The notes under the pieces were generated by a model. That model saw only the letters and a program-made list of their open reading frames with translations, did no database searches and was not told the DNA's origin. Below are positions 5,267 to 55,029 of a stretch of 64,000 nt of DNA, piece after piece. Location of the stretch: contig JBPCVJ010000039.1 of assembly GCA_051010635.1 (NCBI GenBank), positions 2,489 to 66,488 on the forward strand, read 5' to 3'. Both the position numbers and the translations under genes were made by a program. Position 1 is the stretch's first letter. Each line of letters opens with the position of its first letter. This DNA is from Alphaproteobacteria bacterium. GTDB taxonomy: Bacteria > Pseudomonadota > Alphaproteobacteria > JASGCL01.

Positions 5267-5626
5267 TTATTTTTTGGTTTGCGGGGCGGTGCCAGCGGGC
5301 ACGCCACGACTATCTAATTTATATTCATTGGCAACGGGGTTTGTGGTTTGCACAGGGGAAGCACCAGCGGGTGTTTGATTGGGGTTGGCACGCCCCAACA
5401 CGCCATTTTGTTCTAATTTTTGCACCATACCATTCAAATCACCAAACATTTTTAGAAAACCATTTAGCGGTATAATCAAGCGATGGCATGGCACCAATTC
5501 GGGGTTGGCTTGGGGATTGGCAGGATCGCCCTGAACTGAACCAAAATCAATACGCACCATACCGCCGCTTAAGGAAAGATTCACCGTGGCATCGGCAAAA
5601 TATTCGGGGATAGTTTTATTAACCAT
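5267..5626 (-). CDS. Hypothetical Pro/Gln/Asn/Gly-rich protein
   Basis: A 119-aa ORF with locally higher GC. No recognisable motif. It is co-directional with, and downstream of, the giant repeat protein. Confidence 0.3.
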   Translation of the reverse strand: MVNKTIPEYFADATVNLSLSGGMVRIDFGSVQGDPANPQANPELVPCHRLIIPLNGFLKMFGDLNGMVQKLEQNGVLGRANPNQTPAGASPVQTTNPVANEYKLDSRGVPAGTAPQTKK

Positions 5627-5754
5627 AATATTTATTTATAGCAAATGGGCGATGGCTGTCAAGGTTATTTTTTATTTTTGTTATATCATCAATTCGCTAT
5701 TTTTATAGATAATAAAGCATGACCGAAATAGCAAGTATAAAGCACCAGCGGGGT

Positions 5755-8700
5755 TTAGATAAAATTAATATTATCTTGCCCGCCCACTAGGTCAAGGAAT
5801 TGTTGGTAAGTTAGGGCGGCAGTGCCATTTTGGTCAAGGCTAAGACCATTAGGGGTTGCGAATTCGCCATTCAAGTTCGGGCTTTGCCAATCAAATGCAT
5901 TAAAATTATCTTTATCGCCATAGATATAAATTCGGTCATTTCCTGTGCCATCGCCATCAATATCAAACATAATATGACCCGTGCCATCATTGGCATTATC
6001 TTGAATAAAATACCAATGGTACTGGTTTTGATTGCCATCAGGGTCGGTGAAGACAATAAAACTATCATCTAAATTATCAGCGGTTAAGTTATGATAATTT
6101 TTGCCATCATCATTGGTATAATGTGCGTTGGAAAAATAAATATCTGCCGATAGAATAACATTGCCATTGTATATGGCATCATCAACATAAATAGGGGTGT
6201 TGGGTGGTGGGTGGTTTGGGGATTCATTAATATCAACCAAAGACAAAATGAAAGTTTGGGTTATGGATAGGGCGCCATCGCCCACCCCCGCACCACCATC
6301 TGTGCCGATAGCATTGATGGTGATGGTAAAATAATTGCCAGCATGGCCATTATATGTGCCCTCATAATCAAGGCTTGATATAAGGGTCAAAACACCTTCG
6401 GTATCTATCATGAATAGATTGCTATCAGTGCCGCCTATGCTGTAGCTAATATCTGCACCATCGGTATCGACTGCGGTGAAGGTGGTGATGGTTAAATCAG
6501 ATGCATTATTTTCATTGACCGTCGTCCCAGCACTTTGTGTGCCAGACCATTCGGTCATTTCATCGTTAACATTGTTGATGCTTAAAACAAATATTTGGGT
6601 TATCGCCGATGTGCCATCGCCCACCATAATGCCATCGGCTGTGCCGATGGCATTAATTGTTATGGTAAAATAATTGCCATCATAACCGCCATAGATGCCT
6701 TCATAATCGATCGTAGATTTTAAGCTCAACCCCCCCATATTATCAATCGAAAATAAATTGCTATTGATACCGCTGAGAGAATAGGCAATGCCAGCTCCAT
6801 CGGCATCGGTTGCTATAAAGGTGGCAAAGGCTACATTGACAACATCGTTTTCATCTATCACCGCCCCCGCATTTTGTGTGCCAGACCATTCGGTTGGTTG
6901 GTCATTAAGGTTTGTTTCATTGGTGCCATCATTGTTGATGGTTAAAATAAAAGTTTGGCTAAGAATCAAAGCACCATCACCCACCCCATCTCCACCGCTG
7001 GTGCCAATCGCATGGATGGTGATGGTAAAATAATTACCATAATGACCATTATAAGTTTTTTCATAATCAATGCTGGATTTTAGGGTTAAAACCCCCGCTG
7101 TATCTATAGCAAATAAATTTCTATCATCGCCTGCTATACTATAGCTAATATCCGCCCCATCGGCATCGGTTGCCATAAAGGTGGCAAGGCTTACATCAAC
7201 CGCATTATTTTCATTGATGGCGGCACCTGTGCTTGGTGTGCTAAGCCATGCGGTTGGTTGGTCATTCACATCAACTTCGTCTTCGTCGCCAACACTTAAA
7301 ATAAAAATTTGGGTTATTGCCAATGCACCACCGCCTATGCCTTGCCCACCGCCTGTGCCAAGTGCGTGGATAGTGATGGTAAAATAATCCCCCCGATGCT
7401 CATGATAGGTTTCTTCATAATCAATGCTGGATTTCAAAATTAAAACACCATTGTCATCAATAGTAAATAAATCACTATCATCGCCTGTGATACTATAGCT
7501 AATTCCTACCCCATCGGCATCGGTTGCCGTAAAGGTGGTTAATACCAATTCAGAAACATTATTTTCATCGATCATGACTCCTGAACTCGGCGTGCCAGAC
7601 CAAATTGCCATTTGATCATTAACATTGGGATCATCCACCCCATCATCAATCACAGTTAAAATAAAAGTTTGGGTTATCGCCAAAGCACCATCGCCTCTTC
7701 CAAAGCCATCGCTTGTGCCAAATGCACGAATGGTTATCGTAAAATAATTCGCAACATGGTTATTATAGGTTGTCTCATAATCAATGCTGGATTTTAAAAT
7801 TAAAACACCATTTTCATCAATGCTAAATAAATTACTATCAGTCCCAATGATACTATAATCAATGTCGGTCCCATCGGCATCTATAGCGGTAAAGGTGGCT
7901 AACATCAATTCAGAGGCATTATCTTCATTAATCATGCCGCCCGTGCTTGGTGTGCCAGACCAAATTGCCATTTGATCATTGCTGTTAGGTTCGTCTTGAT
8001 TATTAAGCGTTAAAATAAATATTTGGCTGATAGATAATGCACCATCGCCCACCCCCGCACCACCATCTGTGCCTATCGCATTGATGGTGATGGTAAAATA
8101 ATTGCCATTATGACGATTATATATGCCCTCATAATCAAGGCTGGATAGGAGAGTCAAAGCACCTTGCGAATCTATGGTGAATAGGTTGGTATCGGTGCCT
8201 GTGATGCTATAATTGATATTGTTGCCATCAAAGTCAATAGCACTAAAAATAGTCAATATCAGACCAGAAGCATTATTTTCATCAATCATTTCACCCGCAC
8301 TTGGTGTATCCGCCCATCTGGTAGGTTGGTCGTTAAGATTCAGTTCGTTAATCCCATCATTGCCAATGCTTACAACAAAATTTTGGGTTAAAACAATTCC
8401 ACCCGCACCCACACCATCACCGCCTGCCGTGCCGATCGCATTGATAGTAATGGTATATTGATGACTAACCGTTTCATAATCAAGCAATGATATAAATGTT
8501 AGAATACCAGTATCGCTATCAATAGAAAAATAAACACTATCTGTTCCAGTAATTGAATAACTGATACCTGCACCATCATCATCAATAGCGGTAAAAGTGG
8601 TTATCACCACATCGGTTGTATCTTCTTCAATAATAAAAATATCCGAAGTTTGATTATCCGACCAAATGGTTGGTTGGTCATTAACATCGGGGTCATTCAC

Positions 8701-10086
8701 ACCATCATTATCAATACTCAAAACAAAATTTTGGGTTATCACGCCGCCGCCATCATTTTCACGAGCCGATATGATAATACTATAGATAGGGTTAGTGCGT
8801 TCTTCAAAATCAAGCGACGATATGAATGTTAAAATCCCATCATGATTAATATAAAAATAATCGGCATCAGCACCGCTTAAACTATATTGAATAAACCTTG
8901 AACTGCCACCACCATCTACATCAACTGCCAAAAATGTGCCAATCAATATGTTGGCGGTATCGGTTTCGCTAATAGACAAATCGCTTGAGGTTGTCATCCA
9001 AGCCGTATCATCATCAATGTTATAGGCTTGCAAAACAAAAATGGTTGAAATAGATTCATTGCTATCGCTGGAATGGGCATACACCACAACCGAAAAAATA
9101 CCATCGCCATTGGTAGAAGCCTCATAATCAAAACTACCTATTAATCGCAATTCACCAGTATCCTCATCGATTGAAATGGTCGCAAGGGCCGCCTCATCAC
9201 CAGTCAAACTATAACTTATTTCACTATTATCGCCATCACGCGCTGAAAAAAATGCCAAATGATAATCATGCAAACCATCCATTTCATTGGCTGATAAAAA
9301 ATTCCTTTGCGTGCCGTGCCACAGCAGTGGATATTCATCAACATTGGATATTGATAAAACAAATAATGTACTTATCACCAGAGTGCCATCGCCTGATGCC
9401 GCCCCGCCATCTCTACCACGGGCATTGACCAAAACGGTGTAATTGCCCCAACGCTCCCTATCGGTAATTCCTAAACTTAACCAATAATTACTAAGATATT
9501 CATAATCAGGCTGATGTTTTAACCTTATCACGCCATCGCCACCTATCATCATAAGGGCAGTGCCAATACTATCTGGTGTATTGCTTAACCAATAATCTAT
9601 GCCTGGTCCATCAGGGTCTGTGGCAGAAAAAGTCGCAACCCCGCTACCGATATTTGCCGTTTCATCTATGGTTGCCGATGATGGATTACCGACAAACCAT
9701 CTAGCTACCCTATCATTCAAGCCATCTTCATGCAGATTGACAACCGACAAAACAAACAAACTGGTTAGGGCGGGCTCATCAATTACCCTATCGCTTGGTG
9801 CAGCATTAACCACAACGGTATAATTATTCCAGCGTTCTTGATTATAATTGCCAACATCACGCCAATATTGGATTAGATATTCATAATCAACAAAATGCCT
9901 TAATCTAATAACACCATCTAGCCCGATGGTCATAAGCACCAAACCAGCATTATCATCACTGGTGAGCCAATAGCTTATATCGTTGGATTCAGTATCGCTG
10001 GCAACAAAACTTGCTACAGGTTCGCCAACGCCTTTGTTTTCTTCCACATAGCCATCTTCTGGATTGACATCCCAAGTCGTTGTCAT
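5755..10086 (-). CDS. Giant secreted adhesin-like protein with at least 8 tandem cadherin-like repeats
   Basis: 1443 aa. A roughly 110-aa unit repeats: NDQPT.WSGT.S.G..I.ENN.S.L.L.TFTA.DADG..ISYSI.G.DSNLF.ID..GVLTLKSSIDYE..YN.H.GNYFTITI.AIGT.GG.GVGDGAL. Each unit shows cadherin hallmarks (DxDxNDQP linkers, ATDADG calcium sites, LDYE). There is no N-terminal signal peptide. The C-terminus carries Gly/Asp-rich DIDGDGTGNDRIYIYGD, which resembles RTX/T1SS-type calcium-binding and secretion regions. Confidence 0.85.
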   Translation of the reverse strand: MTTTWDVNPEDGYVEENKGVGEPVASFVASDTESNDISYWLTSDDNAGLVLMTIGLDGVIRLRHFVDYEYLIQYWRDVGNYNQERWNNYTVVVNAAPSDRVIDEPALTSLFVLSVVNLHEDGLNDRVARWFVGNPSSATIDETANIGSGVATFSATDPDGPGIDYWLSNTPDSIGTALMMIGGDGVIRLKHQPDYEYLSNYWLSLGITDRERWGNYTVLVNARGRDGGAASGDGTLVISTLFVLSISNVDEYPLLWHGTQRNFLSANEMDGLHDYHLAFFSARDGDNSEISYSLTGDEAALATISIDEDTGELRLIGSFDYEASTNGDGIFSVVVYAHSSDSNESISTIFVLQAYNIDDDTAWMTTSSDLSISETDTANILIGTFLAVDVDGGGSSRFIQYSLSGADADYFYINHDGILTFISSLDFEERTNPIYSIIISARENDGGGVITQNFVLSIDNDGVNDPDVNDQPTIWSDNQTSDIFIIEEDTTDVVITTFTAIDDDGAGISYSITGTDSVYFSIDSDTGILTFISLLDYETVSHQYTITINAIGTAGGDGVGAGGIVLTQNFVVSIGNDGINELNLNDQPTRWADTPSAGEMIDENNASGLILTIFSAIDFDGNNINYSITGTDTNLFTIDSQGALTLLSSLDYEGIYNRHNGNYFTITINAIGTDGGAGVGDGALSISQIFILTLNNQDEPNSNDQMAIWSGTPSTGGMINEDNASELMLATFTAIDADGTDIDYSIIGTDSNLFSIDENGVLILKSSIDYETTYNNHVANYFTITIRAFGTSDGFGRGDGALAITQTFILTVIDDGVDDPNVNDQMAIWSGTPSSGVMIDENNVSELVLTTFTATDADGVGISYSITGDDSDLFTIDDNGVLILKSSIDYEETYHEHRGDYFTITIHALGTGGGQGIGGGALAITQIFILSVGDEDEVDVNDQPTAWLSTPSTGAAINENNAVDVSLATFMATDADGADISYSIAGDDRNLFAIDTAGVLTLKSSIDYEKTYNGHYGNYFTITIHAIGTSGGDGVGDGALILSQTFILTINNDGTNETNLNDQPTEWSGTQNAGAVIDENDVVNVAFATFIATDADGAGIAYSLSGINSNLFSIDNMGGLSLKSTIDYEGIYGGYDGNYFTITINAIGTADGIMVGDGTSAITQIFVLSINNVNDEMTEWSGTQSAGTTVNENNASDLTITTFTAVDTDGADISYSIGGTDSNLFMIDTEGVLTLISSLDYEGTYNGHAGNYFTITINAIGTDGGAGVGDGALSITQTFILSLVDINESPNHPPPNTPIYVDDAIYNGNVILSADIYFSNAHYTNDDGKNYHNLTADNLDDSFIVFTDPDGNQNQYHWYFIQDNANDGTGHIMFDIDGDGTGNDRIYIYGDKDNFNAFDWQSPNLNGEFATPNGLSLDQNGTAALTYQQFLDLVGGQDNINFI
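6330..8680. repeat. Intragenic tandem DNA repeats of about 330 bp. These are the cadherin-like repeat units of the giant gene.
   Basis: Periodic near-identical segments are visible in the ORF translation and in recurring DNA strings such as ccatcggcatcggttgc and gataatagaaat-like blocks. The boundaries are approximate. Confidence 0.6.
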
Positions 10087-10142
10087 ATATTTTATATCAT
10101 CAGGCTAGCCAATATAAGTTTATTTTGCAAGCGAATTTTTAA

Positions 10143-11009
10143 TCAAAACCCCAACTTAAAATCAGCTATCACCGAGCCGATATTACCTGAGGCAAAATCC
10201 TTTGCCAGCAAAAGCTCTGAACCAGCCCCACGGTTGGTATTACGCCTATCACCAAACACAAAATAATAATCAAAACGCAGTTCAACATCCATCGTGCTAA
10301 ATATAGATAAATCACGAACGATATTAAATTTAACACCGGTGCCAATTTTTAACAAAATATTATTGCCAGCTTTATCCAAATCATCTGGGTTAGGTATGGT
10401 TTCATCAAATAGACCTTTTGTAACAATATCCTCTGTTTGCCAAAATAATACCCCCACCCCCAATCGCAAGGGGAAAGAAAATTGCCAAACCGAAATGCCA
10501 TGGTAGGATTGATCAATCGTAAAAATATAATTATTAAAAGTCACATCGCTAATAACTGCAGGGTCGGTAAGATAAATCTTACCGCTATTACCATAATACA
10601 TAAAATTGGCTTCAGCCGAATAGTTTTGATTAAAATCATAACCAAGCGAAATGCTAGGGGCATAGCCAACTGTAAAACTATTGGTTATATGGTTGCTAGG
10701 GGTGGTTGAGTCATCATCATCATTATTCCCACGATAAAAACCTTCCTCATCAAATGGAATAATAACCGCAAAACCGCCCTTAAAAAACAAACCAAGTGTA
10801 TCTGACTCAGGTGGCAAGGAATAATCATTGGCTATAATTTTAATAGGTTTAGCCGTAGGTTGATTATTGGCTTTGGTATCAGGCTTATTAGTATCCTGTG
10901 CCCACGCCATCAATGGCATAAAACATAAAATAAATTTTATAAATAACCCCATCAACCATAATGAAGTAAAAGAAAAACCAATAGAAGAAAATTTCATGGC
11001 AGGCAACAA
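10143..11009 (-). CDS. Outer membrane beta-barrel protein (small, OmpA/Omp25-like barrel family)
   Basis: It has an N-terminal signal-like hydrophobic segment (..FMPLMAWAQDT). Alternating amphipathic beta-strand pattern. The terminal residues are ...DFKLGF, with the terminal Phe typical of OMP barrels. It lies directly upstream of, and co-directional with, the cadherin-repeat gene. Confidence 0.55.
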   Translation of the reverse strand: MLPAMKFSSIGFSFTSLWLMGLFIKFILCFMPLMAWAQDTNKPDTKANNQPTAKPIKIIANDYSLPPESDTLGLFFKGGFAVIIPFDEEGFYRGNNDDDDSTTPSNHITNSFTVGYAPSISLGYDFNQNYSAEANFMYYGNSGKIYLTDPAVISDVTFNNYIFTIDQSYHGISVWQFSFPLRLGVGVLFWQTEDIVTKGLFDETIPNPDDLDKAGNNILLKIGTGVKFNIVRDLSIFSTMDVELRFDYYFVFGDRRNTNRGAGSELLLAKDFASGNIGSVIADFKLGF

Positions 11010-11091: not shown

Positions 11092-12723
11092 TCAATTAAT
11101 TATGTTGTCATCGCTTGAGGGCAATAAACCCATATATTGTTGCATAGCCTTATCAGGTTGCCGCCATAAATTAAAATAAAATGGTGAAACATAAAGAGCT
11201 TGTGTCATTATTTTTTGCCTTGTAGCAATTGATGGCATATCAGTAAATTCTTGAAACATAGAATAACCAAAACCCAATCGCCCGCCTGCCACCTTAAAAT
11301 CCAACAGTTCAAGCATAGTGGGGAAAAGGTCATAATGGGTTACCTGCCTTTCATTTGCCAGCCTTAATTTTTGTTTATAGATAAAACCATAAATATCACG
11401 ATGGGGATAAAGTGCATCCCATGTTTTAATATCAACATAAGCAATGGCAGTCATACGATGGTCGCCCATCAATAATATCTCGCTATCTTTAAGTAAATTC
11501 ATAGATTCAGCTTTGGCAAAAAAATCATGTAGTGCTTGGGCGGTGCATTCCACCACCTTATCCAAATTATCCACATTGGTTGGTGCATTATAATGGCAAG
11601 AACTGCTAGCTGGCAAATGCATATCAATGGTTGCGATGATTAAAAAAAATGGTGTGCCATCTATTTTTCTTCTATCTTGCAATTCTTTTAATTTGTTATA
11701 ACCTTCTTCCAAAATAGGGGCATCGTGCAATCCCCATTGTCCTTGTTTTTCGGAAATGGCGGTGCCATAACCATTTTGTTGAAAATATTCCATGTGATAA
11801 GCTTCATCAAAATGATGGGTTTGATTATAAAAATCCGCAAGCCCAGCCGAATTGCGAAAGGCGGCTTGAATAAAAACATTGTCATAACCATATTTTTTTA
11901 AAATATCGCTTAAACAAATTGCATTTTGTAAAACGGTGGAATCGCCATGGGTATTTTTTAAATCAATAAAAAATACCGACCTTATCGGCAAACCACATTG
12001 GCTAGCAACATGACCTGATTGGGTATGCACTGCCGTGCCGATGGTTTTAAAATTGAGCACCAATGATTTATCCTCAATAGGCTGTAAAGCCGCTAATAAA
12101 TTTCGCCCATAATAGGCTGGGTGCTTAAAACTATCTTCTAAACTTTCAACATAAATCACTATCAAATTTTTTTTCTTTTTGGGGGCAACGATCGCAACTT
12201 GTTTTGGGTCAATATAATTTTGTTGAAAATAATCTGGCTGATGTGGCCACGGCACACGGCTATAAACAAAATCGGTTATATTGGCCCCACGCCAAAAAAT
12301 CGAACAACTAACCATAACAATCATTAACACCAAAAAAAATTTTATCCTTAATCGCCACCAACCAATTTTTTTTATTTGCAATGGATCTTTGGTATTTTTT
12401 TTTAACCGCAAAGCTATCCATTGGTCAAAAAATGATAACAATAATGCCACCAACCATGGCATCAAAATCAGATATAAAATGCCAGTTTGGGTATAATAAA
12501 ATGGTGCTTCCAAACCTTTGGTGCCAAACATCAATAACATAGAAATGGTTTCCATGCTTGGGCCACTAAAATTACGCCATAACCAAAGATGAAACCCATA
12601 AAACATCAAGGGCACATAATAAGGCAATGCCCCCAACAATAGTGAAAAAACGCCCAATTGTTTAGCAGTTAGCATTTTAAAAAAACGGCTTTGACCACCG
12701 CCAGCTAAATCATCATTCGCCAT
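11092..12723 (-). CDS. Sulfatase-like membrane phosphotransferase (LTA-synthase / phosphoglycerol-transferase MdoB-like family)
   Basis: N-terminal multi-TM region followed by an alkaline-phosphatase-superfamily domain: LIVIYVESLEDSF (the VxxES motif of LtaS/EptA-type enzymes), IIATIDMHLP and LLMGDHRMT (the MGDH metal-binding motif). Confidence 0.7.
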   Translation of the reverse strand: MANDDLAGGGQSRFFKMLTAKQLGVFSLLLGALPYYVPLMFYGFHLWLWRNFSGPSMETISMLLMFGTKGLEAPFYYTQTGILYLILMPWLVALLLSFFDQWIALRLKKNTKDPLQIKKIGWWRLRIKFFLVLMIVMVSCSIFWRGANITDFVYSRVPWPHQPDYFQQNYIDPKQVAIVAPKKKKNLIVIYVESLEDSFKHPAYYGRNLLAALQPIEDKSLVLNFKTIGTAVHTQSGHVASQCGLPIRSVFFIDLKNTHGDSTVLQNAICLSDILKKYGYDNVFIQAAFRNSAGLADFYNQTHHFDEAYHMEYFQQNGYGTAISEKQGQWGLHDAPILEEGYNKLKELQDRRKIDGTPFFLIIATIDMHLPASSSCHYNAPTNVDNLDKVVECTAQALHDFFAKAESMNLLKDSEILLMGDHRMTAIAYVDIKTWDALYPHRDIYGFIYKQKLRLANERQVTHYDLFPTMLELLDFKVAGGRLGFGYSMFQEFTDMPSIATRQKIMTQALYVSPFYFNLWRQPDKAMQQYMGLLPSSDDNIIN

Positions 12724-12823
12724 ATTTTTATTTTATTGTGCGGTTAGCATCCGATATTAATTTTTGCATTTTTAAGCGATGATAAAAAAATTGTCAAGAG
12801 ATAAGGCAAATATCATCATCTAC

Positions 12824-14482
12824 CTATCTGGCAACAGGCCTTGTCCAAAGATTAAGGTAGGTTTTAGAATATTGCAATGATTCGCCAATAATTTTATGCC
12901 ATTCATCAAGATTGGGATAAGAAGGATGTTTTTGAAAAACCGAATAACCAAGCCCCAAACGCCCGCCTTGAATCTTAAAACCCAAATGTTCTAATAAACT
13001 AGGAAACAGGTCATAATGGGTTATATCATATCTCATAGGTTCTAAATTTTTTTGCAAAAATAAATTATAAATATGCCGCACGGGATAAACCGCATTCCAT
13101 TCAACCATCTTAATGCCTTTCATACCAAATAACAAATGGTCTCCTATAATAACAACATTGCTATTGGCAAATAAATTATGATGATCGGCTTTGGTAAGAA
13201 AATTTGCCAAGCTAGCACTGGTGCATTCCACCACCTTATCCAATGTTTTATCTTTGGCATCAACGGTGCAAGTCGAATCAGCCAAAGGGTGAAGGTCAAG
13301 CGTAGCCACCATCAATAAAAAAGGTTGCTGTGTATTTTTTTTATGCTTTTGTAGCCATAGCAATTTTTTATAAGTTTCTTCAAAAATATATTCATCATAT
13401 AATCCCCACTGACCTTTTTTATGGGGCGTCAAAGCATAACCACGCAAATTCCAATCTTCTAAATAATAGGTTTCATCAAATTGATGGCTATTATAAAAAT
13501 TACCCATACCACCCGTTTTGAAAGTTGCCCCTTTCATAAAAACATTATAATAGCCGTGGGTTTTTAAAATATCACTCAGGCAGGTGGCATTGTGTAAAAT
13601 ATGTTTTATTTGTTTTTGTTGTTTATTAACATTGGAATTATTTTTGCCAAATAAAATACTCTTTAAGGGCAAACCACATTCTAAACTTACATGGGCGGAT
13701 ATGGTATAACTATTGGGCGGAACTTGATGAAAAGTTAATTGCATGCCTTTATTTTCAAAAGGCAATAGATGGGGTATAAGATTGCGACCAAAAAAATCTG
13801 GCTGGCGAAAATTATCTTCAAAACTTTCTAGAATAATAATTACCAAATTTTTTTTATTGTCTGGGGGTGTGATGATAACATTTTTTGGGTCAATATAATG
13901 GCGAGCAAAATAATCAGGGTTGTTCGCAGTTTGAAAAACTTGTTCGCCCTGTAAAAAATCCTTCAATTTCATATCCACTGACAAATTCATAGTATTAGAA
14001 ACAATAAAAAAAATAATTGCCAACCATTTCAAATAGAAAAAAACCTTGCCAAATATGTTTAAAATGTTTGGTAAATTTTTTTTTGCCTTAGTGTTCAATA
14101 CTAATTGCAAAACAATGGGCAAGATAAAACCACTGCCAACTATTCGCACTACCTTTACCAACAAAGCCAATAATAAAGCTATCACCAATGGTATTAAAAC
14201 CACAAAATAAATAAAAGTTAGATAAACATAATTGGCAGCTTCTATACCATCAACCCCAAAGGCAAGATGATTCATCACCTGTGCCAAACTTGGCATATCA
14301 AAATATCGTTTTAACCAATAATGAAAATAATAAATCATCAATGGCAAACAATACGGCAAACCAGCCACCAGCCATTGCCAGCTAATTTTTTTTAAACTCA
14401 GATGCGATAATTTTCTTTTTTGCAAAAATAACCAACTAGTCCATCGCCGCCTATTCAACCGTTGAAAACCAAACTTAAACAA
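12824..14482 (-). CDS. Sulfatase-like membrane phosphotransferase, tandem paralog of 11092-12723
   Basis: Same architecture and collinear motifs: LVIIILESFEDNF, MVATLDLHP and VVIIGDHLLF. It is clearly paralogous to its neighbour. Confidence 0.7.
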   Translation of the reverse strand: MFKFGFQRLNRRRWTSWLFLQKRKLSHLSLKKISWQWLVAGLPYCLPLMIYYFHYWLKRYFDMPSLAQVMNHLAFGVDGIEAANYVYLTFIYFVVLIPLVIALLLALLVKVVRIVGSGFILPIVLQLVLNTKAKKNLPNILNIFGKVFFYLKWLAIIFFIVSNTMNLSVDMKLKDFLQGEQVFQTANNPDYFARHYIDPKNVIITPPDNKKNLVIIILESFEDNFRQPDFFGRNLIPHLLPFENKGMQLTFHQVPPNSYTISAHVSLECGLPLKSILFGKNNSNVNKQQKQIKHILHNATCLSDILKTHGYYNVFMKGATFKTGGMGNFYNSHQFDETYYLEDWNLRGYALTPHKKGQWGLYDEYIFEETYKKLLWLQKHKKNTQQPFLLMVATLDLHPLADSTCTVDAKDKTLDKVVECTSASLANFLTKADHHNLFANSNVVIIGDHLLFGMKGIKMVEWNAVYPVRHIYNLFLQKNLEPMRYDITHYDLFPSLLEHLGFKIQGGRLGLGYSVFQKHPSYPNLDEWHKIIGESLQYSKTYLNLWTRPVAR

Positions 14483-21883: not shown

Positions 21884-22549
21884 ATGGGATATTTTTTTAA
21901 ACAATCATTTTTTTATACCAAACTTCTTAGAAGTTATCGTATCACCTATATATTCATAAGTTTAGTCATTGGCAACACCACCAGCCATTTAGCAAAAGCC
22001 GAATGGTTGTTCCAAGCCAATGCAGAATTTTATATCCCTACAGCAACAACTATCAATCAAGATGGCAAAACCGCTAAAATTTCAAATGATCAAGGTGGTG
22101 GTTTTTCAGCCATATGGGGTTATCGCTTTTTACAACATATTGATACGACTTTAGAATATGTTTTTTTACACCATCATTCGCATATAAAATCGGGTGGTCT
22201 TTTCAACCACTTACCTGTCAAAAATTTTTATGTTAGTCACCATCTTGCCTTAGCCAATATCGGTTATCATTTTGGGCGTTATGCGGGTTTAAAAAATTTT
22301 GGTATTGATATCGGCACTGGGTTTGGGGCAGAAATCACCAATGGCGGTGTTGGTTTATATCATGCCAGCCAATTTGTTATGCCATTCAAATTGGCAGTGA
22401 ATTATCAAATCAATGAAATTTTCACAATGGGTATTTATAGTCGCTATTATTTTCCTATTGGTGATAATGGTACAGCCAATGCAAAACCAGCCAGCATTGC
22501 ATCAGTCGGTGCTTTTTCGGCAGGGCTATCTTTGGGATTAAATTTTTGA
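21884..22549 (+). CDS. Outer membrane beta-barrel protein (small)
   Basis: Hydrophobic N-terminal region, alternating beta-strand pattern, and a C-terminal ...SLGLNF with terminal Phe. Confidence 0.5.
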   Translation: MGYFFKQSFFYTKLLRSYRITYIFISLVIGNTTSHLAKAEWLFQANAEFYIPTATTINQDGKTAKISNDQGGGFSAIWGYRFLQHIDTTLEYVFLHHHSHIKSGGLFNHLPVKNFYVSHHLALANIGYHFGRYAGLKNFGIDIGTGFGAEITNGGVGLYHASQFVMPFKLAVNYQINEIFTMGIYSRYYFPIGDNGTANAKPASIASVGAFSAGLSLGLNF

Positions 22550-27505: not shown

Positions 27506-28504
27506 TTAAAAGGCATAACCAATTTTTGCCCCAACCTCTATCGTTGTATTGGCAGGTTCTGTAAAAGAAAGCGTAACATTGCCATCACTGCTAACATTAG
27601 TGCCAGAACATACACTATCTTTTATAATATCATCTTTTGAACTATTTAATTCCCCTACACATGGCAAAGTATAATTAACCGATTGACTATCAGCTATATC
27701 CCAATAATTAAAAAATGGTTCAAAAACAATGTTTTTATAACCCAATGCTAGCGATATTTTAATACCATAACCGACCGATTGCTGATTTTTAAAAGGACCA
27801 CCGGGTAAATTAAATTTAATAAGTCGAAAATTATTCTCATCAACTTGCCCAACTTCTAGCGGTTCAAAATGTGTATGTTGCGCACCAATTAATAATAGAT
27901 CATATTCGCCACCAAGCGAAATATGCCAAACATCATCATTATAGTTATATTTGATACCAAAAGGCATATAACCAATATGATTTTCTCGGTCATAAGCCAA
28001 ACTCCCCGTATCAGTTCTTTTACCACCATCATAATTACCTGTATAACGATAACCAAAACCAGAAAAAACATGAAAAGAATGATTTGGCTTAATTATTTTT
28101 TCATAGCCTGTCAAAAGCCTTATTTCGGTCAAAAAATAGCTAGCATTATCATGCGATCCTGTACCCGCTGAGGTATATTGCAATGACCCGCCATAAATTG
28201 TTATATCAGGTGCTATGGTGCCACCAAATTCAAATCGCAATTTACCAAAATAATTCGCACCAAATAGAGGACCTTCATTTTTAATAAAAAATGCACCATT
28301 ATTGGTTTCGGTATAATTGTAATAGGCACTTAAGGCAGATATTTTATGTTCATAAGTGGCGGCACGAACAGAATGTGTGGTTATCATATATGCTGATGAT
28401 ATCATCACAGCATAGATGATAGCTAAACATAATTTTGTAAAATACCCCTGCCTTAAGAACATCACAATAGGCACAATAATTCTATTCATCATCATGTTTA
28501 ACAT
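27506..28504 (-). CDS. Outer membrane beta-barrel protein
   Basis: C-terminal ...AKIGYAF with terminal Phe, aromatic-rich alternating strands, N-terminal hydrophobic segment. The tracked ORF start at 28570 would overlap lpdA by 44 nt. An internal Met at about 28504 or 28495 is more likely. Confidence 0.5.
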   Translation of the reverse strand: MLNMMMNRIIVPIVMFLRQGYFTKLCLAIIYAVMISSAYMITTHSVRAATYEHKISALSAYYNYTETNNGAFFIKNEGPLFGANYFGKLRFEFGGTIAPDITIYGGSLQYTSAGTGSHDNASYFLTEIRLLTGYEKIIKPNHSFHVFSGFGYRYTGNYDGGKRTDTGSLAYDRENHIGYMPFGIKYNYNDDVWHISLGGEYDLLLIGAQHTHFEPLEVGQVDENNFRLIKFNLPGGPFKNQQSVGYGIKISLALGYKNIVFEPFFNYWDIADSQSVNYTLPCVGELNSSKDDIIKDSVCSGTNVSSDGNVTLSFTEPANTTIEVGAKIGYAF

Positions 28505-28526
28505 ATCATAAAATAAATAAAATTGT

Positions 28527-29933
28527 TTAAATATGAATCGCCCGACCAAAAGCTGCCATAGCCGATTCATGTATCATTTCTGATAAGGTGGGGTGGGGGA
28601 AAACACTATGTATCAATTCGGCTTCGGTGGTTTCTAGGTTGCGTGATAAGGTAAAACTATGAATCAATTCGGTTACCTCGGCACCTATCAAATGCGCACC
28701 CAATAACTCACCAGTTTTGGCATCAAATATAATTTTCACCATACCCATGTCTTCTCCAAGCGCGATAGCCTTACCATTACCCTGAAAAGGAAAACGACCA
28801 ATTTTTGTCTTGATATTTTTTTCCTTCGCCTTGTCCTCAGTCAAACCAACCGATGCAATTTGTGGATGACAATAGGTGCAACTTGGAATATTATCTTTAT
28901 TAAGGGGGTGGAGTGGCTTCACCCCAGCAATATGCTCAACCGCTATCACCCCTTCATGTTCAGCCTTATGAGCCAGCCATGGCGGCGCACCCATATCGCC
29001 TATGGCATAGATACCAGCCTCAGCGGTTTCAGCCCATTGATTGGTAGCCACAAAACCCTTTTCAAGTTTGATGGCAGTTTTTTCTAAACCAAGGTTTTCG
29101 CTATTAGCCGTTATACCCACTGCCGATAACAAAACATCAGCGGTCAAACTTTCAATCCCCTTGTTGGTTTTAATATCCAATTTCACCCCATCGGCAGTTT
29201 TGCTTAATTTTTCAGCCTTGCTATTGGTTTTAAAATCAATCCCTTGGGTTGCCAATATTTTTTCAGCCATGGTTGATATTTCTGTATCCTCTTGCGGTAA
29301 GATACGCGGCAATAATTCCACCACCGTTACCTTAACACCAATTTCATTATAAAAACTGGCAAATTCTATACCAATAGCACCGCTACCTAATATTATCATC
29401 GTTTTGGGTTGCTTTTTTGGCTTTAAGGCATGTTTATAATGCCACACCAGCACGCCATCGGTTTCAAACCCCGCTATTTCCTTTGGGCGGGCACCAGTGG
29501 CAAGAATGATATTTTTGGCGGTTATGGTTTTTTCACTTTTATCAGCCATCGCCACCACCACCGACCGCTTGCCTACCGCCCCGCCTGAAAGCCGTGCCAT
29601 GCCGTTAAAAACTTGAATATTATTTTTTTTCATTAAATATTCAACCCCTTGCGACAATTTATCGGCAATCCCACGAGACCTTGCCACCATACCATTCAGG
29701 TCAGATGCTACATCCCCCGCCACAACACCAAATGTTTTGGCGTGTTTGGCAAGACGCAAAACCTCTGCCGATCTTAACAATGCTTTGGTAGGGATACAGC
29801 CCCAATTAAGGCATATTCCACCCAAATGATGTGCCTCGACCAATGCAACCTTTAATTTTAATTGTGCGGCACGAATGGCCGCCACATAGCCACCAGGACC
29901 ACCACCAATAATTATTAAATCAAAATCTGTCAT
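28527..29933 (-). CDS. lpdA: Dihydrolipoyl dehydrogenase (E3)
   Basis: IIIGGGPGGYVAAIRAAQL (FAD-binding), the redox disulfide GICLNWGCIPTK, and the C-terminal HPTLSE interface motif. Confidence 0.95.
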   Translation of the reverse strand: MTDFDLIIIGGGPGGYVAAIRAAQLKLKVALVEAHHLGGICLNWGCIPTKALLRSAEVLRLAKHAKTFGVVAGDVASDLNGMVARSRGIADKLSQGVEYLMKKNNIQVFNGMARLSGGAVGKRSVVVAMADKSEKTITAKNIILATGARPKEIAGFETDGVLVWHYKHALKPKKQPKTMIILGSGAIGIEFASFYNEIGVKVTVVELLPRILPQEDTEISTMAEKILATQGIDFKTNSKAEKLSKTADGVKLDIKTNKGIESLTADVLLSAVGITANSENLGLEKTAIKLEKGFVATNQWAETAEAGIYAIGDMGAPPWLAHKAEHEGVIAVEHIAGVKPLHPLNKDNIPSCTYCHPQIASVGLTEDKAKEKNIKTKIGRFPFQGNGKAIALGEDMGMVKIIFDAKTGELLGAHLIGAEVTELIHSFTLSRNLETTEAELIHSVFPHPTLSEMIHESAMAAFGRAIHI

Positions 29934-31696: not shown

Positions 31697-33127
31697 TTAT
31701 TTGCCTACCAGCGAACGCACCGCATTAATAATATCGGGTATTTGTGGCAAGGCTAGTTTTTCTAAATTCTGGGCATAGGGTAGGGGGACATCTTTACCGC
31801 ATACTCTAAAGGGGGCGGCATCAAGCCAATCAAAACATTGTTCATTAATAACCGCCATAATTTCAGCACCAACCCCTGATTGTGCCCAACCCTCCTCAAC
31901 TGTAATAACACGATTGGTTTTTTTTACCGATGAAACTATCGCTGGTATATCAAGTGGTCGTAAAGTTCTTAAATCTAAAACCTCAACCTCAATCCCCGAT
32001 TTTGCCAATTCTTCGGCCGCTTGTAAAGATTTTCCTACCATAATTGAAAAAGTAATAATGGTCGCATCGCTCCCAATACGCTGTAATTTGGCTTTGCCTA
32101 TCGGCACTTGCCAATCTTCGCTATCAGGCACTTGAAAAGATTGCCCATAAAGTATTTCATTTTCTAAAAATATCACTGGATTATTATCCAAAATGGCTGA
32201 TTTTAATAAACCCTTGGCATCGGCCGCAGTGTAAGGGGCAACTACTTTTAACCCTGGCACATGGCTATACCAACTGGCAAAACATTGTGAATGTTGTGCC
32301 GCCACCCGTGCCGCGGCGCCATTGGGACCACGAAATACTATCGGACAATTTATTTGCCCCCCCGACATATAAAGGGTTTTGGCGGCACTATTAATAATTT
32401 GATCCATCGCTTGCATTGAAAAATTCATTGTCATAAATTCTACTATTGGACGCAATCCATGAAAGGCGGCCCCGATACCAATACCAGCAAAACCCATTTC
32501 GGTTATGGGGGTATCAATAATGCGTTTGTTGCCGAATTGGTCAAGCAAGCCTTGCGTTACTTTATAAGCCCCTTGGTATTCACCAACCTCTTCACCCAAT
32601 AAAAATACCTTATCATCGCGCTGCATTTCTTCTTTCATAGCATCACGCAAAGCCTCCCGCACTGTTTGCATTGTCGTTTTGCCTGTCCATTCGTTTTCAG
32701 CAACAGGCATTGCTTCAGTATTTATATGTGGTGCAACGGGTGGATGTTGTTGCAAAGGTTCTTCTACTAGTGGTGGTGCCATATCCGCACCATTGCTTGC
32801 CATATCATTTGCCGTATTTTTCGCCATATCGGTTGGTGCATGATGTGATGTATTTTGGCTTTTTGCCATCACATCTTCCAATGTTTCATCATCTTCTAAA
32901 ATAACCGCTATAGGGCTACCTACCTGTATTTTTTGGCTACCACCCGCAATGATAATTTTTGCCAATGTGCCACTATCAACCGATTCAACCTCCATGGTTG
33001 CTTTATCAGTTTCTATTTCGGCAATAATTTGTCCGGGTGTAACTTTATCACCCTCCTTGACCAACCAACGGGCAAGATTACCCTCGGTCATGGTGGGGGA
33101 AAGGGCGGGCATTAAAATTTGTGGCAT
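31697..33127 (-). CDS. pdhB: Pyruvate dehydrogenase E1 beta subunit with an N-terminal lipoyl domain
   Basis: The N-terminus [29 protein letters not shown]...[12 protein letters not shown] is a lipoyl domain with its lipoyl-lysine. An Ala/Pro-rich linker follows, then the transketolase-like E1-beta region ([26 protein letters not shown]). This fusion is known from alphaproteobacterial pdhB. Confidence 0.92.
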
Positions 33128-46166: not shown

Positions 46167-46239
46167 CTTAACTTTCTATGTATCACATTGTTTTCACATA
46201 TCGCAAATCAATAAAATTTTTTGGCTAGATTTTTATATC

Positions 46240-46323
46240 TGGTGCGGGCGGAGGGATTTGAACCCCCACGAGTTACCTCACCAGAACCTAAATCTGGCGC
46301 GTCTGCCATTTCGCCACGCCCGC
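46240..46323 (-). tRNA. tRNA-Leu (anticodon TAG)
   Basis: Reverse complement GCGGGCG-TG-GCGAAATGGCAGACGC-GCCAGATTTAGGTTCTGG-(long variable arm TGAGGTAACTCGT)-GGGGGTTCAAATCCCTC-CGCCCGC-A-CCA. A type-II tRNA with anticodon loop TTTAGGT. Confidence 0.9.
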
Positions 46324-50440: not shown

Positions 50441-51142
50441 ATGATAGTTCAAATGAAACCTGAAGAAATTAATGTTTTTTGGCAATCTAACAACCAAACA
50501 ACATGGGAATATGTTTTGGGAAAATATATGTCCCGTGTTAAGTGGCGAAATAGAGAATTAGAGAATGAGTTAGAAAATGAATTCAATAAAGTGAAATGTT
50601 TAGATGATATAAAAAAATTCAAGGATGTAAAGAACTGGTATGAATTTATGTTAGAAAAATATTTTAGATGGAAATTTACTGACGGTAGGATATATGCAGG
50701 AAGAAAAACAGAATTTGAAATAAAATATGCATCTAATCAAGTATGTTTAGAAAATATGATTGAAGCTATTTTGCAAGAATCTAATCAGGCAGATGCCCAG
50801 ACAATGATAGCACTTACAAGAGAAATAGATGGGCTTGCTGTTCCAGCAGGTTCGGGTTTTTTGGCTTTATTATTACCAAAATTATATGGCACGGTAGATA
50901 GATATATTGTTGAGAATATTAAAGTCATAGAACCATTTAAAAATCACCCATTAATAAAATATATTAAACTTACAGCAATAGATAATACAGATTTTGAATC
51001 CTTAACAAAAATATTTAGAAATAAGGCAGATGAATTAAATAAAAAATTTTCTACTAATGATTGGACGCCTAGAAAAATTGATAAAGTGCTGTGGGCTATT
51101 CGGCAACCCCGCAAACCCCGCATTTCAAAATACCACCCTTGA
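50441..51142 (+). CDS. Hypothetical protein, first gene of an AT-rich cassette
   Basis: 233 aa. It has its own AGGTAAA ribosome-binding site before the ATG. No recognisable motif. By eye it is distinctly more AT-rich than the flanking housekeeping genes. Its last roughly 25 codons overlap the 29-bp direct repeat, copy 1. Confidence 0.45.
   Translation: MIVQMKPEEINVFWQSNNQTTWEYVLGKYMSRVKWRNRELENELENEFNKVKCLDDIKKFKDVKNWYEFMLEKYFRWKFTDGRIYAGRKTEFEIKYASNQVCLENMIEAILQESNQADAQTMIALTREIDGLAVPAGSGFLALLLPKLYGTVDRYIVENIKVIEPFKNHPLIKYIKLTAIDNTDFESLTKIFRNKADELNKKFSTNDWTPRKIDKVLWAIRQPRKPRISKYHP
51061..51089. repeat. 29-bp direct repeat, copy 1 (ttggacgcctagaaaaattgataaagtgc)
   Basis: It matches 51614-51642 with a single mismatch (G versus A at position 4). 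Confidence 0.85.
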
Positions 51143-51844: not shown

Positions 51845-52762
51845 ATGATGAAAAAAACATTCAAACAAACTCTATTGGCGTCAGCTTTGATAGGTTTGGC
51901 AGGTATTGCCAATGCTAAAGATGGGTTCTATGTAACCCCTGATTTCAATTTGCTATTTGTCGATAGTGGCTACACCAAAGATAATGGCACAGGCGTTGGT
52001 TTTGGTGGCGGTTTGCTAACTGGCTATCAAATCAATAATTTTCAACTCGAATTGGCGGCTGCCTACCAATATTATGGTGGCACAGGCTCGGTAACCCAAA
52101 ATCTTACACCAACGGGGCAACAGGCTGCCCTTGGCGGTGCTCAAGTTACAGGGGATGCTGAGGTTGGTGATGGTTCTGGATCAATGACCAGCTCGGTTGA
52201 TAGCAATGAAGCTTTCATTCCCTTAACATTGGGGGTGAATTATATCATTCCGCTTAATGACAGCGGGTCATTTTCCATTTCGCCCGGTATTGCAACTGGC
52301 GTGTGGTTTCACACCATAGATAGAAGCTTCTCTCTTAGCCCTGATGCTAATGTGATTAATGCTACTATTGGTGGTGCAAATGCAACCCAAGAGGGTCAAG
52401 TAGCGTTTGGTGCAGCTGTGGCAAATGCTATTACTGCTAGTGGTGGAACTCTAAACCAAGCTCAAGCCTCACAAGCGGTGGCAGCGGGTATTTTAGACGG
52501 AAATGCTCCCGATGATTCTGCTAGCGAAACCAAATGGGTTATCGTGCCAGCCTTGAACATGGATTATGCGATATCGCAAAATTTCACCATGCGTCTTGCG
52601 GGTAAATTTTATCTTGTGCCATCTGGCTACAGCGATAATTATGATGCCACTAACCAAGCCAATGCCGAGGCAGGGTCAGCTTTGTTTGCCCCAGCCTATA
52701 ATGGCGTAGAAGATTTCTTCTGGTATGGTGCGGTTAATCTTTCAGCACAATATACTTTCTAA
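51845..52762 (+). CDS. Outer membrane beta-barrel protein (Omp25/Omp31-like surface antigen family)
   Basis: Clear signal peptide (MMKKTFKQTLLASALIGLAGIANA-KDG). Gly/Ala-rich loops. C-terminal ...LSAQYTF with terminal Phe. Paralog of 54295-55029. Confidence 0.7.
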   Translation: MMKKTFKQTLLASALIGLAGIANAKDGFYVTPDFNLLFVDSGYTKDNGTGVGFGGGLLTGYQINNFQLELAAAYQYYGGTGSVTQNLTPTGQQAALGGAQVTGDAEVGDGSGSMTSSVDSNEAFIPLTLGVNYIIPLNDSGSFSISPGIATGVWFHTIDRSFSLSPDANVINATIGGANATQEGQVAFGAAVANAITASGGTLNQAQASQAVAAGILDGNAPDDSASETKWVIVPALNMDYAISQNFTMRLAGKFYLVPSGYSDNYDATNQANAEAGSALFAPAYNGVEDFFWYGAVNLSAQYTF

Positions 52763-54294: not shown

Positions 54295-55029
54295 TCAAAA
54301 CCTATATGATGAACCGATGGTAACACCGCTATACCATAAAAGCCCGTCTTCTGGTCTGGGGCTTTCGGTGGTATAATATCCTTCGGTGTTGGCGATATCA
54401 ATAGCCGAATCGCTATAAACTTCATTATAACCACCAAACACCATATAAAATTTTCCTGCCAAAATAAGCGTCCATTGGTCATCAAGCGCATAGATCAATT
54501 CTATTTTTGGCACCAATAACCCCCTGATGATGGATGTGGTATCATCAAATGATGCGGTGCCATCAAATGGCGTAGTATTATCGGTGGTGGTAAAGGTTTT
54601 ATTCACACTATAAATCATCATGCCGCCACCGACGCTAAAGGTGGTATCGATGCTTTGTAAAAAGGGAAAGGTGTAATTGACACTACTATAGATGGGGAAA
54701 AAATTTTCGCTAATATCGCCTTCAAGATTTGTGGCGTCGCCAATTTTTTGCGTTTTGCCCGAACCGAAAGCATAATGCCAGCCAGCGGTGGCTTCCCATT
54801 GCCAAGCATCAAATTGATAGCCAAAGCTAAAGCTTAAACCAGCACCAAGCCCAGTTTCGCCCGAACCACGGGTTAAATCAGACGGGATAAGAATAAATTC
54901 CCCCTCAGGTTTGATAAACCAGCCGTCTTCGGCTTTGGCAGTACCCACCGCCATCATCGAGGTTAATAATAAACTGGCTAAACCAATTTGGATGTTTTTT
55001 TTCATTTTATTGCGGCGATGTTTTTTCAT
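54295..55029 (-). CDS. Outer membrane beta-barrel protein (Omp25/Omp31-like)
   Basis: Signal peptide (..MKKNIQIGLASLLLTSMMAVGTAKA-EDG). C-terminal ...IGSSYRF. The true start is probably the second Met, at about 55005. Confidence 0.7.
   Translation of the reverse strand: MKKHRRNKMKKNIQIGLASLLLTSMMAVGTAKAEDGWFIKPEGEFILIPSDLTRGSGETGLGAGLSFSFGYQFDAWQWEATAGWHYAFGSGKTQKIGDATNLEGDISENFFPIYSSVNYTFPFLQSIDTTFSVGGGMMIYSVNKTFTTTDNTTPFDGTASFDDTTSIIRGLLVPKIELIYALDDQWTLILAGKFYMVFGGYNEVYSDSAIDIANTEGYYTTESPRPEDGLLWYSGVTIGSSYRF

Follow-up and report, generated by a model that had tools for sequence, protein, structure and literature searches.

A leaderless eleven-module cadherin-repeat protein with a rare C-terminal domain in an alphaproteobacterial genome

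Introduction

Does a giant bacterial protein built from cadherin repeats leave the cell that makes it, by which route, and with what help from the genes beside it? These questions are raised by a gene on the minus strand (5755..10086) of a 64,000-nucleotide stretch of DNA, hereafter the window, from an Alphaproteobacteria bacterium (GenBank assembly GCA_051010635.1, contig JBPCVJ010000039.1). The gene encodes a 1443-residue protein (154.7 kDa) with a pI of about 4, no cysteine residues, and no signal peptide. The explanation favored here, which is considered probable as a whole, is that the gene was inserted at this locus and that its product is a leaderless 11-module cadherin protein that would be exported by means of its C-terminal tail and stiffened by Ca2+ into a rod. 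The protein is a 100% match to NCBI entry P0001 from a 67-kb contig, [quoted passage not shown] (MAG, metagenome-assembled genome), and its cadherin-domain annotation is already public.

Module architecture and cadherin fold

The cadherin gene is one unbroken 4.3-kb reading frame. Its product carries D[YF]E 11 times (residues 67, 194, 320, 426, 536, 651, 769, 889, 1007, 1127, and 1240), NDQ six times, and DxD[GD] sites, which are the repeat motifs recognized in the initial annotation of this locus. The D[YF]E anchors delimit 11 modules of 105-127 residues each (EC1-EC11), and a hidden Markov model (HMM) built from these modules likewise returns 11, where at least eight had been counted before.

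The Pfam cadherin profile PF00028 matches the full-length protein in nine stretches with a score of 252.2 bits against a gathering cut-off of 28.8 (E=3.3e-76). PF17803 (Cadherin_4), PF17892 (Cadherin_5), and PF16184 (Cadherin_3) gave no match at E<=0.01 in the full-length scan; of the three profiles first proposed for this protein (PF00028, PF17803, and PF16184), PF00028 is the one that applies. A sequence search of the PDB returned cadherin-23, protocadherins, CDHR2, desmogleins, and Fat4 with E-values down to 1.5e-9, the cadherin-23 and protocadherin matches spanning residues 114-330. The AlphaFold (AF2) model of EC10-EC11 has a mean predicted local distance difference test (pLDDT) score of 86.7, with low values confined to Gly/Asp-rich loop insertions. 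Foldseek comparison of this model with the PDB placed animal cadherin ectodomain pairs in all of the top 50 positions (E down to 7e-14, probability 1.0), and the model has the tandem seven-strand Greek-key β-sandwich fold of PF00028. By its repeats and its predicted fold, the protein is thus assigned to the PF00028 cadherin-domain superfamily, and the original cadherin call, which rested on the repeats passing such profile searches, holds.

The motifs of the cadherin Ca2+ sites recur along the protein: every one of the 11 modules has D[YF]E and the glutamate of xEx, all but one have DxD, and NDQ or NDE linkers sit before EC5-EC11. When 26 segments of two modules each were aligned, seven of them from this protein and the rest from homologues, the columns E19, E69, E132, D180, and E182 proved invariant or nearly so. 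The Ca2+-site motifs are conserved, and Ca2+ binding is predicted.

The modules fall into sets. EC1-EC3 (residues 1-359; 9010..10086, minus strand) form a divergent N-terminal set with 26-45% identity to other modules, about 30% to the remaining ones, and EC1 and EC2 contain an insertion of ~10 residues following the DYE motif. EC4-EC11 occupy residues 360-1287 (6226..9009, minus strand). Within this stretch, each of EC5-EC11 has a long linker with NDQP or NDEM at its end, and its last two strands are separated by a Gly/Asp-rich loop (GTxGGxGVGDG). EC6-EC11 are the more alike set, with 53-69% amino acid and 62-77% nucleotide identity, and are likely to be the younger modules judging from these values. 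A poorly conserved spacer with a Pro-rich start, SPNHPPPNTP (residues 1288-1336; 6079..6225, minus strand), joins EC11 to the C-terminal domain.

The initial annotation described the repeats as near-identical and expected assembly collapse. Neither description is supported: pairwise protein identity among the 11 modules is 26-69%, codon-threaded DNA identity between modules is at most 77%, no exact repeated word of at least 40 nt occurs within the gene, and Tandem Repeats Finder reports two 2-copy arrays only (73-80%). Since the modules have diverged without long exact repeats, collapse of the array during assembly is unlikely, and the coordinates of the gene are probably reliable. A broader suspicion would be that the gene is a collapsed or chimeric array, and hence an assembly artefact, or a pseudogene. 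The sequence does derive from a MAG, and the related genes of another MAG, MAG_seacave_3, are spread over five short contigs of 1.8-4.2 kb. Against this stand the single uninterrupted frame, the diverged modules with a similarity that is graded regularly from the N to the C terminus, an intact conserved C-terminal domain whose end coincides with the stop codon, and GC and GC3 (GC content at third codon positions) values similar to those of the neighboring genes. An artefact or pseudogene is therefore regarded as extremely improbable.

Cadherin repeats of this kind had been called uncommon in bacteria, which is an overstatement. Homologues of the 1443-residue protein number 167 at E<=1e-5, and among the 120 listed, most are bacterial or metagenomic and a few are animal cadherins. 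By this measure the protein would be one of many bacterial "cadherin domain-containing proteins". Its nearest relatives share only 30-39% identity with it. Entries so named from marine Gammaproteobacteria, SAR86, and other MAGs (P0010, P0016, P0031, P0056) are also giant PF00028 repeat proteins, with 24-30% identity over 36-88% of the query, but many such entries carry extra PF17963, PF17803, PF04773, or PF00353 domains. The ectodomains of animal cadherin-23, protocadherins, and Fat-type cadherins provide the best sequence and structure matches and have the same set of linker Ca2+-site motifs. Identity to them is ~20%, however, and the bacterial protein differs in having no signal peptide, transmembrane segment, or cytoplasmic tail, in its longer linkers and the Gly/Asp-rich loop of EC5-EC11, and in its bacterial genomic context.

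The conserved C-terminal domain

The last ~107 residues of the protein (residues 1337-1443; 5758..6078, minus strand) form a conserved domain that reaches the stop codon. Its pattern is FTDxDG...HW[YF]F[IV]xD.A.D.[ST]G[HY]I[VM]FDxDG...ALT[FY]xQFLxL[IVL]GG...[IV][SN]F[VI]. The C-terminal 156 residues are Asp/Asn/Gly-rich with one DxDGDG loop, much as the initial annotation had it, but the resemblance to type I secretion substrates that was read into this region drew no match from RTX or type I signal models.

The domain is rare and strictly C-terminal. It forms the extreme C-terminus in all three giant cadherin genes of one related locus (L001) and in a 456-residue protein of another (L002). 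When 1.84 billion cluster representatives were searched exhaustively with HMMER, 16 had the tail domain at E<=1e-3; a word-index homology search with the tail had returned nothing. In the ten clear matches besides the query (P0121-P0130), the domain lies at, or is cut off at, the C-terminal end. PF00028 repeats were found in eight of the nine tail-bearing proteins scanned with Pfam, the exception being a 285-residue fragment (P0124), with P0121 and P0123 outside the scan. The domain is present in 3 of 185,579 species genomes, its profile gave zero matches in 241 million metagenome records, and among the 119 other proteins listed as cadherin homologues it occurs only in P0002.

No convincing Pfam, NCBIfam, or PDB family match to the tail was obtained. 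A sub-threshold match to the autochaperone profile PF18883 (AC_1; E=0.0017) was dropped, being present in one of eight family members only. A phmmer match to the β-fructofuranosidase 7bwb (E=0.003) was also dropped, as the family profile did not reproduce it. The models for type IX secretion, PEP-CTERM, and other sorting domains gave no NCBIfam match at E<=10 in four family tails, and the protein has no signal peptide.

The tail is a candidate for a role in export and in Ca2+ binding. Weak matches of the family profile, at E 0.1-1, are all to EF-hand proteins (myosin light chain, calmodulin, S100, and CaVP) and place FDxDGDG and ALTFxQFLxL on the loops and helices of two EF-hand units. Pfam EF-hand_1 matches one family member at E=0.26. 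This likeness is treated as a lead only. It speaks for an alternative in which the tail is not an export signal but a functional Ca2+-binding, ligand-binding, or anchoring module, similar to an EF-hand or a dockerin, while export depends on a different secretion system, on vesicles or lysis, or on no more than a few terminal residues. The EF-hand-pair matches, though weak, agree with one another in theme, and the conservation of the tail also speaks for this alternative: type I secretion signals are usually less conserved in sequence. Every EF-hand match is non-significant, however, the loop by inspection has no canonical acidic residue at position 12, and the extreme C-terminal position in every member suits a C-terminal export signal. 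Such a binding module in place of an export signal is possible but unlikely, and the two roles can coexist in one domain.

Export and predicted function

The protein does not appear to enter the Sec pathway. The open reading frame (ORF) can be extended in frame by merely six codons beyond the ATG before a stop codon, and the N-terminus is hydrophilic (maximum hydropathy 1.4); it is therefore concluded, in agreement with the initial annotation, that there is no Sec signal peptide. The relatives P0002 and P0121 likewise open directly with a cadherin module. The protein is strongly acidic, with 215 Asp and Glu residues against 34 Lys and Arg residues and a pI of at most 4.05.

Leaderless, acidic, Cys-free proteins with C-terminal signals follow the pattern of type I secretion system (T1SS) substrates, and among RTX proteins 90% have a pI of 3.2-4.9, with several T1SS classes having no Cys (PMC3034196). 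The 1443-residue protein shares the leaderless, acidic, Cys-poor character of RTX proteins and, with its conserved C-terminal domain, fits the T1SS pattern.

The mechanism proposed for it has three steps. The protein would leave the cell by a Sec-independent route, with the C-terminal domain probably carrying or forming the recognition signal and with a T1SS encoded elsewhere in the genome as the most probable machinery. Outside the cell, Ca2+ would be bound at the inter-module sites formed by xEx, DxD, D[YF]E, and the NDQ/NDE linkers. The modules would then stiffen into a rod that may act as a surface or matrix adhesin or as a lectin, gripping a surface, a polysaccharide, or another cell. A cadherin module is ~4.5 nm long, so 11 modules would give a rod of ~50 nm. 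The parts of this mechanism differ in strength. Export is likely, an adhesive function is somewhat favored, and the type I route stands at about even chances. A host as the target is doubtful, and the content of the window includes nothing that shows a host-associated lifestyle.

The closest functional parallels are the RTX adhesins with cadherin domains, FrhA of Vibrio cholerae and RtxL1/RtxL2, together with the "cadherin" class among predicted RTX adhesins (PMC3034196; for the likeness to RTX adhesins see also PMC6890996 and PMC10523503). Like them, the window protein is large, acidic, and leaderless, with tandem modules predicted to bind Ca2+ and a putative C-terminal export region. Unlike them, it has no RTX nonapeptide block, retention module, ligand-binding split or head domain, or linked T1SS genes, and its C-terminal domain belongs to a different, very rare family. 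Since neither RTX repeats nor a retention module were found, the protein is not filed as an RTX adhesin.

Several results weigh against tail-dependent type I export and surface display. The RTX nonapeptide PF00353 is absent (E<=0.01 for the whole protein, E<=1 for the tail), and the NCBIfam models of T1SS C-terminal targets, the TIGR03661 type among them, of retention modules, and of sorting domains found no match even at E<=10 in four family tails. The AlphaFold model of the tail has a pLDDT of 42.6, which is unusable, and it was kept out of the fold search. A Pfam scan of 46 ORFs of the window, most of them ordinary housekeeping genes and nine without a Pfam match, found no ATP-binding cassette (ABC) exporter, HlyD-type membrane fusion protein (MFP), or TolC; nor does an ABC, MFP, or TolC gene lie beside the cadherin clusters of relatives. 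Their absence from the window does not exclude type I secretion. Finally, surface anchoring is left unexplained because an N-terminal retention module of the LapA/MpIBP type was not found: the N-terminal region has no such Pfam or NCBIfam match, and the protein opens with a cadherin module.

The Rap proteins of Rhizobium leguminosarum bring an alternative into view. These cadherin-like proteins with Ra/CHDL lectin domains come from an alphaproteobacterium and have no RTX repeats, and they are Ca2+-dependent and secreted by the PrsDE T1SS, whose genes lie apart from those of its substrates (PMC9298526). The comparison is one of descriptions rather than sequences, and Rap proteins are small, with one or two Ra domains, as against 11 classical PF00028 modules and a distinct tail. 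By analogy with Rap/CHDL and cadherin-type carbohydrate-binding modules, the window protein might be a polysaccharide-binding matrix lectin rather than a host-cell adhesin. The Rap proteins bind exopolysaccharides and capsular polysaccharides (PMC9298526, PMC5061743), and the window protein has no dedicated ligand-binding head domain beyond its repeats. Its modules, however, match classical PF00028 and not PF17803, PF17892, or PF16184; the run of 11 consecutive modules resembles the extender regions of giant adhesins, which in RTX adhesins are known to be stiffened by Ca2+ (PMC7493085); and no polysaccharide genes co-vary with the cadherin gene. A dedicated matrix lectin is accordingly given a low probability.

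Genomic neighborhood and insertion

The cadherin gene lies between two smaller genes on the same strand, and all three ORFs are present as first annotated (5755..10086, 10143..11009, and 5267..5626). The upstream gene encodes a predicted small, β-barrel-type outer membrane protein (OMP). It had been given 288 residues; its co-directional position stands, but the start is most likely the ATG at 10997 and not TTG, as in NCBI protein P0136, which gives a gene at 10143..10997 (minus strand) and a protein of 284 residues. By inspection the OMP has a plausible signal peptide (...PLMAWA|QDT) and a terminal Phe (...DFKLGF). It has only five homologues and no Pfam match of its own, while a 62%-identical orthologue, P0137, scores narrowly above the PF13505 cut-off (29.1 versus 28.7 bits). 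A match of the OMP to NCBIfam CglE (E=0.0025), at 17.7 bits where the cut-off is 70, is not meaningful.

The downstream gene (5267..5626, minus strand) encodes the Pro/Gln-rich 119-residue protein reported earlier. Neither Pfam nor NCBIfam has a match for this protein. Its N-terminal 80 residues are ~80% identical in four genomes; behind them come a Pro/Gln linker that varies and a terminal LDxRGxP...KK motif that is conserved. A 21-nt stretch across the cadherin stop codon (5740-5760) is 86% identical to 5359-5379 in the Pro/Gln region of this small ORF, which may be chance.

Synteny was compared in three related genomes, represented by L003, L004/L005 (GCA_030054115.1), and L006, whose orthologues are 47-86% identical to the window proteins. 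All three have the same gene order: aldehyde dehydrogenase (Aldedh), a Cys/Met pyridoxal phosphate enzyme, a radical SAM protein, (a 327-residue gene), sulfatase, OMP, small ORF, glpX, and aldolase. The small ORF lies between the OMP gene and glpX and directly follows the former, at a distance of 57-109 nt and without a cadherin gene between them. The window has the same block with two additions, a second sulfatase paralogue and the 4.3-kb cadherin gene, which separates the OMP gene from the small ORF. The two paralogues, OpgB/MdoB-like phosphoglycerol transferases of the sulfatase family, lie in tandem at 11092-14482 (minus strand); the three relatives have one, preceded by the unannotated 327-residue gene.

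On this comparison, the cadherin gene appears to be a lineage-specific insertion into a housekeeping block of sulfatase, OMP, small ORF, and glpX. Insertion is preferred as more parsimonious than a loss in each of the three relatives, and the choice between the two is a matter of parsimony only, which counts against that part of the explanation. An exact 11-nt direct repeat flanks the gene: the sequence TTATATCATCA occurs on the plus strand at 10092..10102, 6-16 nt upstream of the cadherin ATG, and TTATATCATCA occurs again at 5681..5691, 64-74 nt downstream of the stop codon. This repeat could be an insertion scar, but it is marginal and was noticed post hoc, with a chance P of about 0.04 by Markov-1 resampling that roughly keeps the dinucleotide content.

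The same comparison bears on whether the three genes work together. In a dedicated operon of OMP, cadherin protein, and small ORF, the β-barrel would export or anchor the cadherin protein, as in a split autotransporter or a two-partner system, and a link of this kind was implied when the three were first annotated together. The genes are co-directional, the gaps between them are 56 and 128 nt with no terminator-like site in either, and a scan of the two spacers for promoters and terminators found nothing specific; the tail also gave the one weak, below-cut-off PF18883 match. Synteny largely refutes the idea all the same. As the OMP gene and the small ORF are conserved neighbors in three relatives without an intervening cadherin gene, both would be bystanders, and neither is expected to be a functional partner of the cadherin gene, whether insertion or loss is assumed. 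No comparable OMP lies near the clusters of relatives whose cadherin genes bear the C-terminal domain, and the OMP (~250 residues when mature) is too small for an Omp85/TpsB translocator. Type V passengers require a Sec signal peptide, and the cadherin protein has none; it ends after the tail, and its AC_1 match, seen in one of eight family members, is sub-threshold. A dedicated operon is judged highly improbable.

Relatives and family distribution

The nearest cadherin relatives are found at another locus, between obg and a DAO/GCV_T gene. On OZ241918.1, a 1.63-Mb alphaproteobacterial MAG chromosome (L012-L017, L001), six tail-bearing genes lie in tandem at ~574,269-658,357, between the obg-like and DAO/GCV_T genes. 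The five whose size can be read encode ~2,400-4,000 residues each, and the cluster, at ~84 kb, takes up roughly 5% of the chromosome. A smaller cluster occupies the same site in CBDHFT010000006.1 (L002/L018). The size of the six-gene, ~84-kb cluster suggests that this cadherin family matters to the organisms that carry it.

The tails closest to that of the window protein (52-68% identity) come from "Gammaproteobacteria bacterium MAG_seacave_3" (JBPCWX01..., L007-L011), on its five contigs of 1.8-4.2 kb. The family may span two classes; otherwise the bin is wrong, or its label is. Judging from this fragmentation, short-read assemblies seem to break at multi-copy cadherin genes. A second label also calls for comment. 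L004 (GCA_030054115.1, JASGCL010000002.1) is named "Hydrotalea sp." (Bacteroidota), and it has the full block in common with the window (GlmS, GlmU, Aldedh, ..., OMP, small ORF, glpX, FBA, Suf); the label is probably wrong.

L003 contains another cadherin protein, of 588 residues (763-2529), a few kilobases upstream of the syntenic block. Its N-terminus is rich in Pro and Trp, its cadherin modules are C-terminal and ~33% identical to those of the window protein, and its last 120 residues do not have the conserved tail motifs. Its position at another site suggests that the location of cadherin genes varies within this clade. Five proteins of the window are each the sole member of their 90% cluster.

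A wider evolutionary scenario is tentative and unlikely to hold in full. In it, a narrow clade, known to date from alphaproteobacterial MAGs and one Gammaproteobacteria-labelled MAG, would have evolved its own leaderless family of classical-type cadherin proteins, with the ~107-residue tail, hitherto undescribed and possibly EF-hand-like, as a new Ca2+-dependent export or anchoring module and with the window gene as a recently transposed single copy.

Other genes of the window

Some observations concern other parts of the window. A tRNA gene (46243-46323, minus strand) runs into the start of the MutS ORF as called mechanically (TTG at 46221); MutS domain I begins at residue 126, and the MutS start is therefore probably further downstream. 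The ORF at 31697-33127 (minus strand) encodes a pyruvate dehydrogenase E1-β subunit with an N-terminal lipoyl (Biotin_lipoyl) domain, an arrangement that is typical of Alphaproteobacteria and agrees with the NCBI label. Five ORFs of 221-354 residues have no Pfam match, at E<=1e-5 for 21884-22549 and 27506-28570 and at E<=0.01 for 50441-51142, 51845-52762, and 54295-55029. The last three lie in a stretch of uneven GC content (0.33-0.47, 50-56 kb) beside a DUF3800 gene.

Significance

The advance made here is modest and has two parts, a small family defined by its very rare, uncharacterized C-terminal domain and the case for the gene as an insertion. For annotation, the number and boundaries of the modules are now set, and neither the OMP nor the small ORF should be assigned to a secretion operon. 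Giant bacterial cadherin-repeat proteins are common in metagenomes, and almost none have been studied. If the tail is an export or anchoring signal, this family would offer a small, tractable system for the secretion and display of non-RTX repeat adhesins.

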